This document shows positions 52,337-60,115 of a stretch of DNA of 64,000 nt, one piece after another. Position 1 is the first letter of the stretch. The number at the start of each line of letters is the position of its first letter. Origin of the DNA: Massalongia carnosa (taxonomy: Eukaryota). The position numbers and the translations under genes are program-made. The stretch covers positions 744,001-808,000 of the forward strand of contig OZ287067.1 in the NCBI GenBank assembly GCA_965645245.1, given 5' to 3'. The notes under the pieces were generated by a model. That model ran no database searches. It was given only the letters and a program-made list of their open reading frames with translations, and was not told the DNA's origin.

Positions 52337-53348
52337 ATGACCAACCTACTCCTCTCCCTTTACATTGCCTTCTTCTGTACTCTTACACGAGCACTACCGT
52401 CTTCAGTCGAATCAGCCCTTGAAGGTCGCAACGCCATAATTCCGGATGACGGTGGGTCGATCGTTCCGGTCTGCTGGGCACAGCTTCAATGCAGTTTTCA
52501 TCAGATCGAAAACATGAGCTTGTCCGCACGTCTTTCTTATGTACGATACATGGAGAACCGCTTTGTCCCTTTGCACGCAGACAATCAATTCCGTGCCATT
52601 GAGGGTGTCATTGAATTCTTCATCTCTGAAGGCATGGGTGGCCCGGGAACATGGATTTCATATGTGGACGCTGGGATAGTTGAAGCAATCCAGCGCGGTG
52701 GCGCGATCGCCTTGGGGATTGGAACCTCCACGGGTGGAAACCCCGGATCGGAGCTGTGGGCGGATTTCTTGACGAAGATGAAGAACAAGGAGTTTAAAGA
52801 TCGAAATGTAAGCTTAGGACGAGGCCTAACTTCCTAATATCTTGTTGATAACCTTCTCATCGCCTTGTTTGTCTAGGATCATGACCATGCATGGTCAGTA
52901 TCCGAGCAAACAGCCACGGAGTACGGCAAGCACACGGCCGAATCGACCAGCACGGTCGGTAAGGCAGCCAAGCAGCAACTTCGCTGGTACCAATTTACAC
53001 AACTTTTCCGGGCTATCATGCGCAATCGAGAAAAAGTCATTGTGACCATCCGGGTGTGAGTCAACCCTCTTTGGCCCGATATTTTCGGGTGGATTATCTC
53101 TAACCTCCACTAGTACCTTCATCCTGACCAACCCGGGCCTGTCTCTCGCGGCGGAAGCATTCATCGATTGGCTGACGGACATTACGAACGAAACGCCAAC
53201 TCGAGTCGGAAGCGAGTTTGCTTGGAGTCTCGCAGAGCTCGATCTACCGATTGGAATTGATAGTGGATCTGCTCTCCTTAACGATATCAAGGTTCTCGAA
53301 GCGTTGCTGCCGAAACTATACGAGGCGTATAAGGATAGCCACAATTAG
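52337..53348 (+). CDS. Secreted hypothetical protein, 3 exons
   Basis: TATA box (TATATAA ~52240), signal peptide MTNLLLSLYIAFFCTLTRA, and pro-peptide ending LEGR. Introns ~52808-52876 and ~53056-53113 join an intact frame to TAG at 53348. Confidence 0.82.
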
Positions 53349-53761
53349 GAGTGATACGAAACTCACATAGCGGTGGCAAGAGGATTTGGGTGCTTGGCGC
53401 AGATTCTGTAACTCCTTATCAGGTATGTCATTAGTTAGTTCTATAACGCAGAGACGATCCACAGTGGTACGGTTGACAATGAGATGTGAACCTTGTCATA
53501 TATTTTCCCTCTATTAAATCTTGCTTTAGTGTCTCAAATAAGATATCACCATGATTTTCGCCGTTGATAGATTCCTGTATTAATGTAGACATACAACTGT
53601 AATTGTAATTCCTCCCCTTAGAATAGAAAACTAAGTTCCTAGGTATCTAGGAAGGATAAGCTCCTTGAACAAACCCCTTTAAAAAGGTATATTGAAGCTA
53701 GCCTCTTCCGGAGTCCTCCGTACATTTGGTTGAACGGCCAGCTAAAGAAAGCTGCGTGCTT

Positions 53762-54377
53762 TTGCCTCAGTACCTCAGACGTGCGTGGGCTCTAGGAGCC
53801 GTCTAAGCCCCTCCGGGTTAGCCTATTTCGCTAAGCTCCTTCGGATTAGCGTTCCAGCTGACTAACGTGGCTGCGATAGCACGTCTGAGCGCAAAACTCA
53901 ATATTACGGTCAGATATTCGTAATAAATCGTGTATTATTGCGATTTTTCGACATTTTGACGTCTTACTTTTTTGTTTGACACAGGCTATTTCTTCGAAAG
54001 AATTCAAGTAGAATTTGTATAGAAAGTTTCCTGAAATTCCTGTTCGTTGTAAAGTTCATGTGGGGCAATCTTATTGCACTTCGCATACTCGTAGAAATCG
54101 AGAATCGACTTAACGAAATAACAAGATGTATGTAAAATTGCTCTGCACGTTATAAACATAAATAAAGATTGAAATTTATAACGAAAAAATCAAAAATACA
54201 TTGATCATGATCATATCAAGCGACGACGACGTTACAAACATGCGTTGTTCTATGAGGTCGAAATCGTTCTTGTCATGATCGTAATCTTGAGTTTTGGGCT
54301 CAGACTTGCTACAGATGTGCTGCGTAGCCTGTTAACCCGAAGGGACTTAACCGGGCACGTCTGAGGTACTGAGGCGA
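53762..54377. mobile_element. Non-autonomous TIR element (MITE-like) with 8-bp TSD, copy 1
   Basis: Perfect 21-bp inverted repeat GCCTCAGTACCTCAGACGTGC (53764-53784 / 54355-54375). Flanking direct repeat GCGTGCTT at 53754-53761 and 54378-54385. No ORF. Confidence 0.85.
53879..54309. mobile_element. Nested AT-rich inverted-repeat segment inside copy 1
   Basis: Ends match as inverted repeats at 30/34 (GCACGTCTGAGCGCAAAACTCAATATTACGGTCA). TA on both sides (53877-53878, 54310-54311). Absent from copy 2. Confidence 0.7.
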
Positions 54378-55433
54378 GCGTGCTTAAAATTCTCCAGCAA
54401 GGCTGATTAATCAATTATACGCTAGTCTCCTTTTAGCGTCGTTGAACTGCCGTCAGGGAGTATGAAGTAAAGAGAAGTAGTTGTGAGAGAATTTGTGTCC
54501 AATTGTGTCAATGTCCAAGTACCTTTCCAACCTTGGTTGAAAAGAGTTTTTTGCGATGATAATGCGTAGATTTTCTGGGGCAAGTATTTTTAGACATAGG
54601 CAGACCTTTTTTACTTAAAGCTATACTCATGTAAGCAATAGAGGGAACTGCGCGGGGCTGAGATGAAATGATTGATGAAGCAAAAACTAAGGCTTATCTT
54701 ATCATGTTAGTTTTGAAGTGTCTAACCTGAGGAGATGGATGCGAAGACCTTGAAAGTTGAGGAATTTGGCACGAAGCCAATATCTTGAAGTCTCATGCTT
54801 TTTTGGATGGCCATAATGGCTCGTCGAAGCCTTTAACCTTCCATTCTAGCCGTTGGCCCCTCTACACTGGCCCTTGTGAAAACCCAAAATCTAAGCTCCC
54901 GCCAATCCCACAGAAAGCCCATCAGATTTCTCTTCTCAAAGGAGGCTTGTCTAAAGGGTGCAAACGAGCTTGAAACGCGCGATGGCAGTTTCTGTCTCTA
55001 GGGCCGGATGTTTAGATACGCAGGCGCCGTGACGTATGGAAGGGGCGCTGCGCCGTCCTGATTTGACCCTGATTTGGGGGAGGAGAGAATAAATGCGGGC
55101 TAAAGGGAGGGAAAAAGGGCCGGATAGAGCGGAAGGCGATGATGATAGGAGAAAAGGGGCAAGAGGAAGGTACCTATTTGGAATGGAGCTAGTTGAACAA
55201 GGAGAGAAGCTGAAAAATGAGTTGGGGCAAGGCTTTAGGAATGTGGTTCGAGTAATCTTGGGATTTCGTGAATAGGAGGACAAAGAAAGCCTTTAAAGAA
55301 AAGAAAAAAAGGCCTACCTATGATACATGGGAGGATTTTGCCAGGGTTGCTCTTTTCCCATTTCTTGGAGGAGATAGGATTACCGGAAAGCGGATGGAAG
55401 CGCTTGGTCTCCCGCCGCTGGCGTAACAGGAGC

Positions 55434-56612
55434 CTATCTGCCCGATCCCAGAATCTCATCTTCTAGCTTCCGGCTCTTAGCCGCTCGTTCCACTTCCTTA
55501 TTTCGTTCATCGCCCTCGTCATTGTCGTCGCTTTGACCAAACCCTCTCTTCCCAAGCAGCTGTTCCTCGAACATCCTCGTTTCGCGCTCCCGCGCTGATT
55601 CTTCGCACCCACTTGATCGGCCTGCATGATGATGGCTGCGTCTTGGCTTAAGCTCTGATGATGTGCCCTTGGCTCGCGAGGATGATGGCGGTCTAGGCGC
55701 AGGCGCAAACACGGCATTGAGGCCTGCATTGAGCAGCTGACGCTTGTCAATCACCTGGCCATCTTCATTGATGATGGCACCCTTTTCTCTTGCTAGGTCT
55801 GCCTCACTCTTCTCCTTCTTCACCTCCGTCTGTTCGCCCCCCCCAATGACAACAGGCGCCCTTGATTTCGCCTCTTTAGCCGCTTTCAAAGCAGCCATAT
55901 GCTTCTGGTCGTCCCTCTCCAGCATATTCTTATACAAACTCTTCAACCCGCCCCCTTCCCGCCTCTTCCGCTCCTCAGCCTCCTGCTCCCGGGCCGCCTC
56001 CTCAGCTTCCAACCGGCGCATCTCTTCCTGCTGCCGCTTGTACGCTCCCGTGACGAACTTCTCCTTATCCGCAAACTCGTCACCCTCTGCTTCGCGGTCC
56101 TTGGCTAACATCTTTTCCTTGGCTCGCAGCTGGTCGCGTTTCCGCGTCTCGGCTGCCGCGAGTAGGTCGCCCATATATTTTGGGCGCTTTTCAGTATCCG
56201 CCGCTGCCGCCGCGCCCGCGGCGCCCGCGAAGGATGATGATGATGCGGGTGGCTTGGCGTGCAGGGAGTCATAAACAGAGTCATAGTCGTATATGCTGGG
56301 ATCAACGATCTGGGCAGTTTTAGCGTGGAGGGAGCTGCTATGGTGTGTAGATAGGTCGCCATATTGCGAAAATTTTTGCAGCGGTTTGGTGGGTTTGCCA
56401 GGCGGTTTTCTAGCCTTTGGGTGGGTGGATTGGGGAAACGACGAGGCGATGCCGCCGATGGTGGAGATTGATTCGGCGGTGGCATCGTCATTGGAGCTAT
56501 CGTCAGGGCCGGATTCGTCATCGAGGATTATCTTTCGCTTTGCTGGCAGAGGACGTGTGGCTAGCGAAGGCGGCTTTTTAGTAATGTTGAGGCCATAAGA
56601 AAGTTTAGACAT
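55434..56612 (-). CDS. NSRP1/CCDC55-like coiled-coil splicing-associated protein (DUF2040)
   Basis: DPSIYDYDSVYDSL and PKYMGDLLAAAETRKRDQLRAKEKMLAKDREAEGDEFADKEKFVTGAYK; start MSKLSYGLN. Confidence 0.85.
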   Translation of the reverse strand: MSKLSYGLNITKKPPSLATRPLPAKRKIILDDESGPDDSSNDDATAESISTIGGIASSFPQSTHPKARKPPGKPTKPLQKFSQYGDLSTHHSSSLHAKTAQIVDPSIYDYDSVYDSLHAKPPASSSSFAGAAGAAAAADTEKRPKYMGDLLAAAETRKRDQLRAKEKMLAKDREAEGDEFADKEKFVTGAYKRQQEEMRRLEAEEAAREQEAEERKRREGGGLKSLYKNMLERDDQKHMAALKAAKEAKSRAPVVIGGGEQTEVKKEKSEADLAREKGAIINEDGQVIDKRQLLNAGLNAVFAPAPRPPSSSRAKGTSSELKPRRSHHHAGRSSGCEESARERETRMFEEQLLGKRGFGQSDDNDEGDERNKEVERAAKSRKLEDEILGSGR

Positions 56613-58919
56613 TGGATTTGTTGAGGAGGTGTTGAGCGAAGATGGGGTAACGAAAGACAGCAGGTGTCGAAACTGAGGCGGAAAAGTGAAGTGTATGTTC
56701 AACAGAGAACCTTAAATAGTTTAGATGGGTTAGACAGGTTGACTAAATCACTTATCTTATAGAGTACCCTGTAACTCTACTCAAGTCTGAATGAGGCAGA
56801 TGATGTTGCACCTACAAAGGAAAATTAAGACTTTGTTATTCAATTCCAGCAGCATAAATTGTAGACTTGACAAGCTGATTCACAAAGTATGTTAATAATC
56901 TAGACGTTCCACTTATACATCGCCCTCTTCCTACACTGAATACTTTGCTGTGATTCCTCCTCCTTCCGCTCAAAAAGCTTTTCTATTTCTCAATCAAAAG
57001 TATTATGGCCTTGCTTCATAAGTTTCTTTCAACTTTTCTTGAATCTTAAAGGTGTTCCTCCATCCTCTTGCTCGTCCGCCCTTCTCCTATGCGTATATCT
57101 CATTTATAAAGGCAATCCTCCTACTTCAGCTATCCCTCCAACTTATGAAAACATTGCATTAGAAGAAAAATTCCCAGGCTGATGCAAGTGTGCTAGTGGC
57201 ATAGTTGGCCAATGCGCTTGGAAAACGAATAGTAACATTGACTCATTCATAGCAGAGAATCGCCCAAATACGTACACGTACGAGACTAATTGTCTCTCAG
57301 CCAGCGCTACATTTTCTATTGACGCCCTAATAGCTCTAAACCACTCCCCACGCGTATGTAAAGGTCAAGGATTCGCTCGGAAAGGCCTTCTGCTTGTATA
57401 TGGCGATTTCCATCCCCATGGGAAGAGGGCTGCAATGCTCTTTTTAGCTAAATGATGGATACTGGAAATGATCAGGGGGGCCTTCTTTTATTGGAGTTCT
57501 TGTAGGTCATATGCTGATAGTGATGTTAGTGCTGAGGGAAATAGAAGTAATAGTTCGGAAGAAAGAGAGCGTGTAGAGTTTTGGACAACTAAGGGGTATT
57601 TTAAAGTCAAAGATAAGAGGTGACGATAACTCTGATAAAGTAAACTGCTCAAAGATAATAATGCGCACCACATATACACGTTGGATTAGCCCCAGCGCAA
57701 AAGGGGGCTTGGAGAAAAACTTGGAGGGAAAAATAGAAATAGCGGGAATTAGGACTCATCTCTCTCCGTTGAAACACCCTCGACAGCAGTACTGATGCTC
57801 CTACCGCCACTACGCGGCGCACCTAGTCCCTCCAAGCAAGCGCCCTTGAGCAATTTCAGTACCCGCTTCATGACTGCCCATGCCACTTTTGTGGGGCCTT
57901 AGAAACCAATCGCAACAGCGCAATTTCTAGAGGTGGATGTGCGGCCCGCCCGCGGGGTCCAGATCCCGGGTACCCATTCTGTCCTCGAGTTCCCAGGCAG
58001 CATTTGCGCAACTTGGGGCGCGAGGATGGCCCATGGTGGCCTCGCAGAGGCTGTCGATATTGTCCATGATACCATGATCGGGTACTGATCGACTGTTGAA
58101 CGCTTTGGCCTAGTTTGCAGTAGGGTTTATTTTCATTCGGTCGTAAACGTTGTGAAGGCGCCTAAGGATGCTAATATAATCTTTTGTATAATAGTTTCAC
58201 ATGAAAGTCCAGTTGCTTAGTCCTCTAGAAAGGTAATTGAGCACGATTTGGTCGTTGTCACTGGTCGTTGTCACTGGCCTTTGTTCTTGAGTTAGGGCTT
58301 TTGACCGCGATTGTAAGAAATGGCTATGGTTGCGTCTGAGTTGTCGAATCCGCAACTTTTAATCGCACCAGCTTAGTATTTTAAACGTACACTTCACGAA
58401 CTCAGGTGGACTGGGGAAAATACTGGTGGAAACAGATGATAGAGCCATCCTTTCCTCTGACAATTTCTGACAAAGATCAAGAGTTTTTTAGGGGGGTTTT
58501 TGGTAGAGATATGGGCAGTCCCACTTCATTGCCTGTAAGTGCCCGCAGATACATTTCTTACGAGACCAACGTTCTTGAGACTTTTAAAAAAATTAATGCT
58601 CACCAAGAAAAATGAAATCAACTTCAACGTGCACATAACTGAAACATTTATCTGTTTCGCCGCCCTAGACATAAGATGAACTTAAAACCTCGCATCTTTT
58701 CGCCAACTTCTTGCTAGCTCTCTACTTCGCCATTCGTTATCATGGAACCCCGACTCCGTCTGAGATGTCATGCTCCTAGATTTCTATTCAGGACTGTAGG
58801 GCATTTCCGGTGACTGGGAAAGAAAAATGCTTCGATTGGAAGTAAAAATAGGGTTTGTATCTATTGATTGAATGATGCTTTGGAAGTTGAAACTGATCTT
58901 TCAAAAAGTATGATGCAGT

Positions 58920-59076
58920 TTGCCTCAGTACCTCAGACGTGCTCGGCTAAGCCCCTTCGGGTTAGCCTTACAAAACGTTATGCCCCTTCGGGTTAACAGG
59001 CTGACTACGCAGTGCTATCGCAGCCGCGTTAGTCAGCTGGGACGCTAATCCGAAGGGCTCTGAGGTACTGAGGCAC
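58920..59076. mobile_element. Short second copy of the GCCTCAGTACCTCAGA TIR element
   Basis: 17-bp perfect inverted repeat TGCCTCAGTACCTCAGA (58921-58937 / 59059-59075). Internal blocks match copy 1 in reverse orientation. No TSD visible. Confidence 0.8.
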
Positions 59077-59191
59077 AAATAGTGGATCATACAGCATTAA
59101 AGTCACGTGCAAGTCGGAACCTACGAGTATCGCTTTGTTCATTCAACACACCACACTGTTGCATCTCAATGTGAGATATGACCTTCTAACT

Positions 59192-60115
59192 ATGGCATCC
59201 TCACAAATGAACCCTCGATCTGCATCTCCCCATCTCACCACGTCATCCTCCCCTGCCCCTGGCAAACCGTCTAGATTCCGCTTCAAATCCAAACGTCCGG
59301 GCCTTTCCTCATCATCAGAAGGCTTTCCCCAAAGCTGCCACCGTTCCTCTCGTTCTCGCCGCCACCACCACCATCGTTCCAAGCGACGGGGCTCTACTCC
59401 TCCGCAACCGCCGCTCTCCCCCACCGCCGCCTTCCGCGAGTCCCTTTTCGACGCGCTTGCTGATGATGAAGGTGCAGCCTTTTGGGAAGGGGTGTATGGC
59501 CAGCCGATTCACACATACAGCGCCTATGCGCCTCGTGCCGGCGGTATAAACGATGGAGTAGACGGGAATCTTGAAAGGATGGACGAGGAGGAGTACGTGG
59601 CTCATGTGAGGAGCAAGATGTGGGAGAAGAGCCATGGGTACATACTTGAGGAGCGGAGGCGGAAAGAGGAGAGCATGAAGGCAAAGAAGAAGAAGCAGGA
59701 GGAGTTGAGAATATGGGACGAGGGAGTGGAAGATGCGCTAAGGAGGGGCGAGGAGAAAAGACGGAAAGGGAAATGGGTGGCTTGTTGGCAGGGATATCTG
59801 AAGGGCTGGGAAAAGGTGGCAGAAATAAGAACGGAGAAGCTGGCTAGGGATCAATTGGTGTGGCCGGTGGAGTCGGGTAGGCAGGAGGATGTGAGCTACG
59901 AGGAAGTCAAACGGTTCTTCAAGAATGCGCCCCTGAGTGCAACCGCCGGACAACCGGTAGACCTTGGGGTCGTGCTCAAAGCCGAGCGAGTGAAATGGCA
60001 TCCGGACAAGGTGCAGCAGCGCTTTGGAAGTCGAAGGGTAGATGACAATGTTATGAAAGCGGTCACGGCGGTATTTCAGGCCATTGATCGGATATGGTCG
60101 GAGACACGCTCTTAG
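59192..60115 (+). CDS. Conserved fungal protein with C-terminal WHPDK helical domain (NFKBIL1 C-terminus-like)
   Basis: R/H-rich N-terminus, FRESLFDALADDEGAAFWEGVYGQPIH, MDEEEYVAHVRSKMW and LKAERVKWHPDK. Single exon. Confidence 0.8.
   Translation: MASSQMNPRSASPHLTTSSSPAPGKPSRFRFKSKRPGLSSSSEGFPQSCHRSSRSRRHHHHRSKRRGSTPPQPPLSPTAAFRESLFDALADDEGAAFWEGVYGQPIHTYSAYAPRAGGINDGVDGNLERMDEEEYVAHVRSKMWEKSHGYILEERRRKEESMKAKKKKQEELRIWDEGVEDALRRGEEKRRKGKWVACWQGYLKGWEKVAEIRTEKLARDQLVWPVESGRQEDVSYEEVKRFFKNAPLSATAGQPVDLGVVLKAERVKWHPDKVQQRFGSRRVDDNVMKAVTAVFQAIDRIWSETRS

Follow-up and report, generated by a model that had tools for sequence, protein, structure and literature searches.

The 64,000-nucleotide stretch of Massalongia carnosa contig OZ287067.1 analysed here (positions 744,001 to 808,000 of the forward strand; hereafter the window) contains, between its positions 53762 and 59076, two copies, A and B, of a short mobile element bounded by terminal inverted repeats (TIRs). 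Both are non-autonomous deletion derivatives, similar to miniature transposable elements with inverted repeats (MITEs), of a high-copy TIR family in lichen-type ascomycetes. The family is defined by an invariant 23-nt TIR (TTGCCTCAGTACCTCAGACGTGC) together with an 8-bp target-site duplication (TSD). Longer copies with the same TIR carry a gene for a protein of the Pfam family DUF6589, for which structural models predict the fold of a DDE transposase. It is therefore probable that the window copies are MITEs of a DDE transposon with DUF6589 as the partner enzyme. This judgement concerns the element and its enzyme; the role of the hairpins that fill the ends of the element, which have a fixed place and orientation, is weighed separately below.

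A mobile family with 8-bp target-site duplications

The material examined outside the window consisted of public sequencing runs and metagenome contigs rather than the genome of the window's own species. In six runs (four studies; one labelled lichen metagenome), 37-49% of the sampled words of copy A were present. The contigs of four runs were aligned to positions 53400-59400, with 1052 contigs in run X2 alone. Summed contig depth in the element bins was 6438 in run X1 versus 27.8 in the unique flank, and 333,908 versus 839 in run X2, roughly 100-400 times the flank in these two runs, a ratio that is not to be read as copy number. Contigs of other copies part from the window sequence precisely at 53761/53762 and at 58919/58920, where they appear as loose ends, and this confirms the ends of the element. 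The contig joints on the window were mostly cross-matches among repeat copies, and no empty site was inferred from them.

A scan of the metagenome contigs with 20 nt of the TIR gave at least 122 stretches, which yielded 121 loci (0.97 Mb). The counts of TIR pairs, arms, modules and long copies in metagenome loci given below all rest on these at least 122 matches listed. Complete copies among these loci group by size at about 170-200, 600-640, 690 and 780-820 bp, with a single further copy of 1.47 kb, and the short non-coding copies of the loci and the window range from 157 bp to about 800 bp. When the window was included, 20 of the 29 TIR pairs had a perfect 8-bp TSD and one more matched at 7 of 8 positions. 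After merging the same loci found in several assemblies (six pairs, judged from their flanks), 15 of 23 pairs had perfect 8-bp TSDs. The duplicated octamers have no common motif. The window copies resemble the metagenome loci in the arms only, at 70-80% over at most 160 nt. This indicates that the same TIR serves diverged subfamilies in related fungi, and that the loci describe the family in those fungi and not the window's own subfamily. In the literature searched we found no description of this TIR element family.

Nested or tandem ends were also observed, at L036:2801-2812, L037:2966-3065 and L079:1175-1214. In the nested case one copy was inserted in the TIR of another (left flank TTGCCTCAGTAC), and in two of the loci listed a pair of TIRs stands in direct order at a distance of 20-80 nt.

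In the window, the sequence-only reading had given a single span, positions 53762 to 59076, for its small TIR element. The TIR/TSD mobile element is real, and comparison of the window with itself divided this span into two separate copies with host genes between them, the second copy being inverted and internally deleted. The features are as follows.

53754..53761, no strand: left TSD of A, 8 bp, GCGTGCTT
53762..54377, plus strand: copy A, complete non-autonomous element of 616 bp
53762..53784, plus strand: left TIR of A, TTGCCTCAGTACCTCAGACGTGC, containing the direct repeat CCTCAG..CCTCAG
53788..53800, plus strand: small hairpin in the left arm of A, GGCTC-TAG-GAGCC
53803..53821, plus strand: bulged module 1 of A, CTAA GC CCC TCC GGG TTAG
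53830..53850, plus strand: bulged module 2 of A, carrying TCC/GGA as compensated pair
53879..53889, plus strand: inverted copy of the inner 11 nt of the left TIR, GCACGTCTGAG, closing a foldback of about 115 nt
54301..54311, plus strand: right-arm counterpart in A of the inverted inner-TIR copy, CTCAGACTTGC, with 1 mismatch to the inner part of the right TIR
54331..54351, minus strand: bulged module in the right arm of A, stem variant GTTAA/TTAAC, bulge GT
54355..54377, minus strand: right TIR of A, core identical at 21/21 positions, terminal TC where the left TIR has TT
54378..54385, no strand: right TSD of A, 8 bp, GCGTGCTT, a perfect match to the left one
58920..59076, minus strand: copy B, 157 bp, an internal-deletion derivative inverted relative to A
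58920..58942, plus strand: TIR of B, homologous to the right end of A
58945..58967, plus strand: bulged module of B
58977..58997, plus strand: bulged module of B, in which one pair is broken by T at 58981 (most other copies read A)
59000..59037, plus strand: longer palindrome in the middle of B, GCTGACTA...TAGTCAGC
59044..59058, plus strand: truncated module of B, abutting the shortened TIR of B
59059..59076, minus strand: shortened second TIR of B, of which 16-18 nt remain, the inner part being deleted

The 21-nt core of the TIR has three matches in the window versus 0.00 expected and is identical at three of the four ends, the fourth, in copy B, having kept 16-18 nt. Copy B consists of two halves, one corresponding to A's right arm (93% over 43 nt) and one to A's left arm (96% over 45 nt); relative to A it lacks the interior and a portion of one TIR. 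Neither copy contains an open reading frame (ORF) of at least 80 amino acids, and the element sequence has no further match in the window beyond A and B. The claim that the window holds no partner enzyme was borne out: each of the 12 long ORFs scanned for a transposase has host-type domains or none, and the remainder of the window consists of ordinary eukaryotic housekeeping genes. A search of positions 53500-59400 against Rfam returned a single chance microRNA row (E 0.99) outside the element, and the plasmid collection gave no match to the element.

The 2-kb gap that contains copy A is bounded by an ORF whose end is at 53344 and by an NSRP1-like gene (55437-56711). Copy B stops some 60 bp upstream of a 326-amino-acid ORF (59135-60115, plus strand) and may therefore occupy the promoter or leader of that gene. 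Between the two copies, positions 58425-58625 showed a summed contig depth about 30 times that of the flanks in runs X1 and X2, raised also in run X5, with loose ends at 58525. This segment has no other match in the window or in the metagenome loci and looks like another short repeat family.

The DUF6589 gene of the long copies

The sequence-only reading had proposed a search for long copies with the same ends and for the enzyme they encode. Four such copies were found (L002, L068, L044 and L071), each of at least 5.8 kb, sharing the TIR and 4-7 kb of interior at 64-90% identity. Their upstream flanks are mutually unrelated, which indicates four independent insertions. All four have been killed by repeat-induced point mutation (RIP), with a GC content of 0.14-0.31, TpA/ApT of 1.2-2.1 and (CpA+TpG)/(ApC+GpT) of 0-0.24, and no ORF of at least 100 amino acids is present in any of them. 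One frame of L068, read through with X at the stops, matched DUF6589 over positions 56-394 of the 410 in the profile (34.1 bits, the cut-off being 27; E 1.6e-8), and the other 20 read-through frames of the long copies had no Pfam match. A tblastn search with intact relatives revealed DUF6589 homology in all four long copies and a fragment in L017. The L068 pseudogene extends from about 15309 to 13458 and is read on the opposite strand from the anchor TIR, and the DUF6589 pseudogene is the only gene found in the long copies sharing the TIR.

No right TIR was detected within 10 kb in the long copies by a RIP-tolerant pattern search, and a BLAST search in a two-letter alphabet gave only noise. 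The ORFs adjoining solitary TIRs in 12 locus regions were of host type (ankyrin/NACHT, CRAL-TRIO, DNA polymerase subunit and others), with no transposase among them. The six frames of L068:10000-20020 contained no helicase, XPG or HUH domain, a result that is weak for helicase and XPG because of the RIP damage and the unlocated right limit. The anchor TIRs are intact because the scan demanded an exact TIR, so that RIP-damaged ends are under-sampled. AT-rich RIP blocks (GC 0.14-0.31) that start exactly at the TIR and run for at least 9 kb were observed in L068:10000-20020, L071:10000-20020, L020, L061 and L074.

Searching with the RIP-damaged L068 translation in phmmer, we obtained 201 proteins at E of at most 1e-3, 13 of them at 1e-30 or below (best 7.7e-84, 39% identity). 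All 16 matches that were tested are DUF6589 proteins, with nothing else of note. Among 44 family members, all match DUF6589 only and no P, hAT, KDZ or other transposase Pfam model. The family is multi-copy within genomes: one lichen-associated fungal metagenome-assembled genome (MAG) has four paralogues, three of which are 76-80% identical to the fourth, used as the query. These proteins are labelled hypothetical in every source. In the literature searched, DUF6589 is named only as 'enriched' in rust fungi, and a search for PF20231 gave nothing relevant.

The AlphaFold 2 model of a 473-amino-acid member has a mean predicted local distance difference test (pLDDT) score of 86.7, and that of a 945-amino-acid member one of 74.7 overall, with residues from about 110 to 790 mostly above 85. 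Structural alignment of the full-length model with VIA-align gave the P element transposase (Z 10.0, 345 residues aligned, root-mean-square deviation 5.9), Hermes (Z 8.4, 289 aligned) and Tn5 (Z 8.2), and the first 35 rows, judged by their titles, are DDE transposases, retroelement integrases, Argonaute-type proteins or an RNase H domain. The shorter model gave the same picture. Foldseek with the full-length model also placed the P element transposase first (E 3e-3, probability 0.97), followed by Hermes chains. In the family alignment a candidate catalytic triad is conserved: D261 in 22 of 24 rows, D421 in 40 of 42 and E665 in all 42. D261 lies on strand 1, D421 just after strand 4, and E665 on the helix that follows a large all-helical insert, which aligns partly with 6p5a_A. 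DUF6589 is thus predicted to be an RNase H-like cut-and-paste enzyme of the DDE type and not an HUH enzyme.

The conserved positions 421, 456, 595 and 661 carry D-to-N or H-to-Y changes in the DUF6589 paralogues P0018, P0158, P0159 and P0160 of one fungal MAG. These are changes of the RIP type, and annotated DUF6589 'genes' can therefore be dead copies.

Several observations weigh against a DDE transposon with DUF6589 as its enzyme. The Pfam match was obtained in one of the four long copies, and L002, L044 and L071 rest on tblastn. No intact autonomous copy with both ends was seen; the search for a right end in the long copies found none, so that TIR and DUF6589 are linked through one end only, seen four times. 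Copy B has no TSD, as its flanks GATGCAGT and AAATAGTG show no duplication. The fold matches are middling, a Z of 7-8 being a common best score in VIA-align; Foldseek gave nothing at E of at most 1e-3, and the truncated model had no useful match in it. The DUF6589 profile found nothing below E 0.1 among the sequences of solved structures, and P0018, the protein behind the full-length model, carries N at 421 and Y at 456.

Under the DDE transposon reading, the short copies would most likely be moved in trans by the DUF6589 protein, the putative active transposase, whose gene lies in the copies of at least 5.8 kb with the same end, all examined ones of which have been destroyed by RIP.

The sequence-only reading had instead linked the bulged hairpins to HUH enzymes. 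According to this explanation a single-strand enzyme of the HUH type (IS200/IS605 TnpA, RAYT or Helitron-like) recognises the hairpins and moves the element. The hairpins are indeed small, imperfect, subterminal, bulged and strand-asymmetric, as in the ends of IS200/IS605 and REP/RAYT elements, and C-GAA-G triloops are very stable in single-stranded DNA. IS200/IS605 and REP/RAYT elements, which are moved by a Y1 HUH enzyme, are not known to have TIRs or a TSD, nor are HUH elements in general, whereas the present element has perfect TIRs and a fixed 8-bp TSD (20 of 29 pairs). A fixed TSD and an invariant 23-nt TIR characterise the staggered strand transfer that DDE enzymes carry out. Moreover, the only gene linked to the TIR is DUF6589, whose intact relatives have a DDE fold, and no HUH or helicase domain was present in any frame scanned. 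Both lines of evidence leave the HUH and single-strand reading unsupported, and we regard it as very improbable.

Foldback arms and conservation of pairing

The survey of the arms covered 156 of them, 135 being distinct over 120 nt. Their build is constant: the 23-nt TIR, a variable stretch and then the TIR's inner 11 nt again, inverted. This inverted copy (GCACGTCTGAG, after which come CGCAAA-like letters) was found in 120 of the 156 arms, mostly 60-110 nt from the end; in short elements a match near 150 nt is the other TIR. The variable stretch contains palindromes such as GCTAGCCC-TATC-GGGCTAGC, CTAACCCG-TTC-CGGGTTAG and AAGCCAC-AA-GTGGCTT, the latter with longer loops in some copies, as well as GCTAA-TAT-TTAGC, GGCCAGC-AA-GCTGGCC and GCTG-ACTACG-CAGC. 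The bulged module of the window is one type among several of these palindromes, which are subfamily-specific, and both arms of a single element can bear different ones. Perfect local stems of at least 6 bp occur in 46% of 124 distinct arm segments versus 10.7% of dinucleotide shuffles, and stems of at least 8 bp in 15% versus 0.6%, the segments being mutually related and not independent trials.

Of 94 modules, 89 lie at most 200 nt inward of a TIR; 85 of these 89 have one orientation, and their centres are mostly 40-59 nt from the end. The GAA-loop version of the module is on the strand that ends in the 3' end of the transposon. At L047:2530-2667 a tandem array of modules adjoins the TIR, with a period of 28 nt and at least 4 units, some decayed, which indicates that the module number grows by tandem duplication.

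For the window, all six module positions listed by the sequence-only reading are present, and the pairing variants it described (CCC/GGG versus TCC/GGA, CTAA/TTAG versus TTAA/TTAA) are real, with one broken pair at 58981. At this position other copies have A, restoring the pair (23 contigs in run X1 and 29 in run X2). Its statement that the loop stays GNA and the bulge is constant holds in the window and fails across the family, where other subfamilies have unbulged 8-bp stems, stems of other sequence and the loops TATC, TAT and AA. With at most 3 mismatches, the 17-nt module core has five matches in the window, all within A and B, versus 0.17 expected, and none of 100 shuffles reached five. 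The bare 9-mer YCCGRAGGR is not significant alone (8 matches versus 4.53 expected; 11 of 100 shuffles reached 8), and six of its eight matches are inside the two copies.

Pairing was conserved above shuffled controls. Among 53 distinct modules, 86.0% of cells pair versus 84.1±0.6 after shuffling (2 of 500 shuffles reached this value), and changes on both sides of a pair number 15 versus 7.4±2.3 (1 of 500), distributed over five of the nine pairs. In 36 distinct whole arms of one subfamily group, 94.3% of cells pair versus 92.4±0.3 (0 of 500), slid controls giving 28-37%, and both-side cells number 31 versus 11.2±2.7 (0 of 500). The strongest covariation adjoins the 11-nt core of the long stem, at alignment columns 25-26, with CC in the left and TT in the right arms. 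These columns track the inner copy of the same arm (CG in 25 and 21 rows, UA in 10 and 13 rows, of 36). As the left and right arms of one element differ here, the enzyme apparently tolerates both letters. An inverted pair of identical binding sites for a protein would 'covary' likewise; it would not explain an inner copy that tracks its own TIR variant, with both variants working in one element.

Other data count against selection on pairing. The covarying cells come from few lineages, and related rows can beat every shuffle without any structure; of the compensatory changes claimed at the outset, the excess over shuffles and the pairs changed on both sides stand, and they amount to few events. 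One-sided changes that break a pair are common, for example at the loop-closing pair, unpaired in 7 of 53 modules. In module-bearing arms the letters of loop and bulge are conserved to at least 90%, as much as those of the stems, which fits sequence-specific reading as well. The fold energy between the TIR and the inner copy is modestly below that of shuffles (median z -0.95); z is below -2 in 32% of 94 stretches, a set that includes whole short elements, and lies between -2.3 and -2.7 in the window arms. Finally, when one frequent variant is set aside, G-T and C-A mismatches are not clearly biased towards either strand (17 versus 35 cells).

Of three readings of the palindromes, a double-stranded or architectural use is slightly ahead. 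Each arm is a foldback of about 100 nt, in which the inner 11 nt of the TIR recur inverted 60-110 nt inward with one to several palindromes between. The TIR and the inner inverted copy are putative binding sites of the transposase, and the palindromes may be subterminal accessory signals in which the ability to pair, rather than the exact sequence, tends to be kept.

Alternatively, the ends could be read as structure: palindromes and foldback would act as extruded hairpins, cruciforms or folded single strands needed by the DDE transposase or by a helper, for example a helicase encoded by the element like that reported for AcademH relatives, and pairing would be under selection. The same place is taken by unrelated palindromes across subfamilies and even between the arms of a single element, which speaks for this explanation, as do the excess of stems of at least 8 bp, the preservation of a stem while its loop length varies (AAGCCAC-AA-GTGGCTT and AAGCCAC-GAAAAA-GTGGCTT), the both-side changes above shuffles, the covariation of columns 25-26 with the arm's own inner copy and the GAA loop on the strand with the 3' end. 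It is opposed by the lack of a helicase in the six frames of L068:10000-20020, the modest energy z-scores, the small number of independent events and the mismatches without clear strand bias, and DDE transposases are not known to need folded ends. We consider it unlikely that structure is read in this way. The same holds for its strictest form, a DDE family whose ends must fold, with the foldback of about 100 nt and the hairpins of the 3'-end strand extruded or unwound, perhaps by a helicase, and read by shape, to which we would give only a small chance. Foldback arms whose palindromes share a place and differ in sequence offer a clean test of whether a DDE transposase reads DNA shape.

The palindromes, together with module repeats of 28-31 nt, could also be neutral by-products of slippage, template switching or abortive gap repair at the transposon ends, inherited with no role in transposition. 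This is consistent with a module number that ranges from 0 to at least 4, including the array in L047, with copy B as an obvious deletion product, with the broken pairs in many copies that have perfect TSDs and with covariation derived from few lineages. A by-product would not be expected at a place (centre mostly 40-59 nt) and in an orientation (85 of 89) that are fixed across diverged subfamilies and species, nor would different palindromes recur at the same place, and we hold this explanation to be doubtful.

Comparison with hAT, P and Academ transposons

The results connect DUF6589, a protein family of 'unknown function' found widely and in multiple copies in fungi, with a concrete mobile element that has defined ends and a defined TSD length. 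Annotators can use them to recognise dead long copies and the abundant short copies near genes in lichen fungi.

Among hAT transposases, Hermes is the second-best fold match (Z 8.4, with several chains in Foldseek), and the 8-bp TSD is a further likeness. In hAT elements, subterminal repeats are bound by the N-terminal domain of the transposase. The differences are that none of the 44 DUF6589 members has a hAT dimerisation domain or a BED finger, and that the termini of the element do not begin with YARNG, the hAT motif.

In both aligners the transposase of the Drosophila P element comes out closest to DUF6589 in structure (Z 10.0; first in Foldseek), and in both proteins the RNase H core is split by a helical insert. 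P elements have an 8-bp TSD, which is common to the present family, and subterminal internal repeats beside their TIRs. On the other hand, none of the 44 DUF6589 members matches the Pfam models of the P element or THAP (E of at most 0.1), there is no sequence match to the solved chains, and the TIR sequence is unrelated. In fungi, P elements are reported only from Pucciniales and Allomyces (PMC5751038).

Academ may be the closest named kin of the family; membership is plausible, the TSD length differs, and the comparison is by description only. The second gene of Academ elements encodes a superfamily II helicase (AcademH) or an XPG nuclease (AcademX), and neither was detected in the six frames of the RIP-damaged L068:10000-20020. 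According to PMC5751038, Academ elements have low copy numbers in most fungal taxa and their greatest abundance in rusts, a spread that matches where DUF6589 occurs, and in 2017 there was no Pfam model for the Academ RNase H domain. Should the ends have to fold, this would be the first hairpin-guided recognition of ends outside the HUH enzymes and would provide a role for the unexplained helicase of the Academ superfamily. PMC10045372 gives a TSD of 9-10 bp for AcademH and of 3-4 bp for AcademX, whereas that of the present family is 8 bp. This length separates the family from both described Academ lineages, if it belongs to Academ at all.

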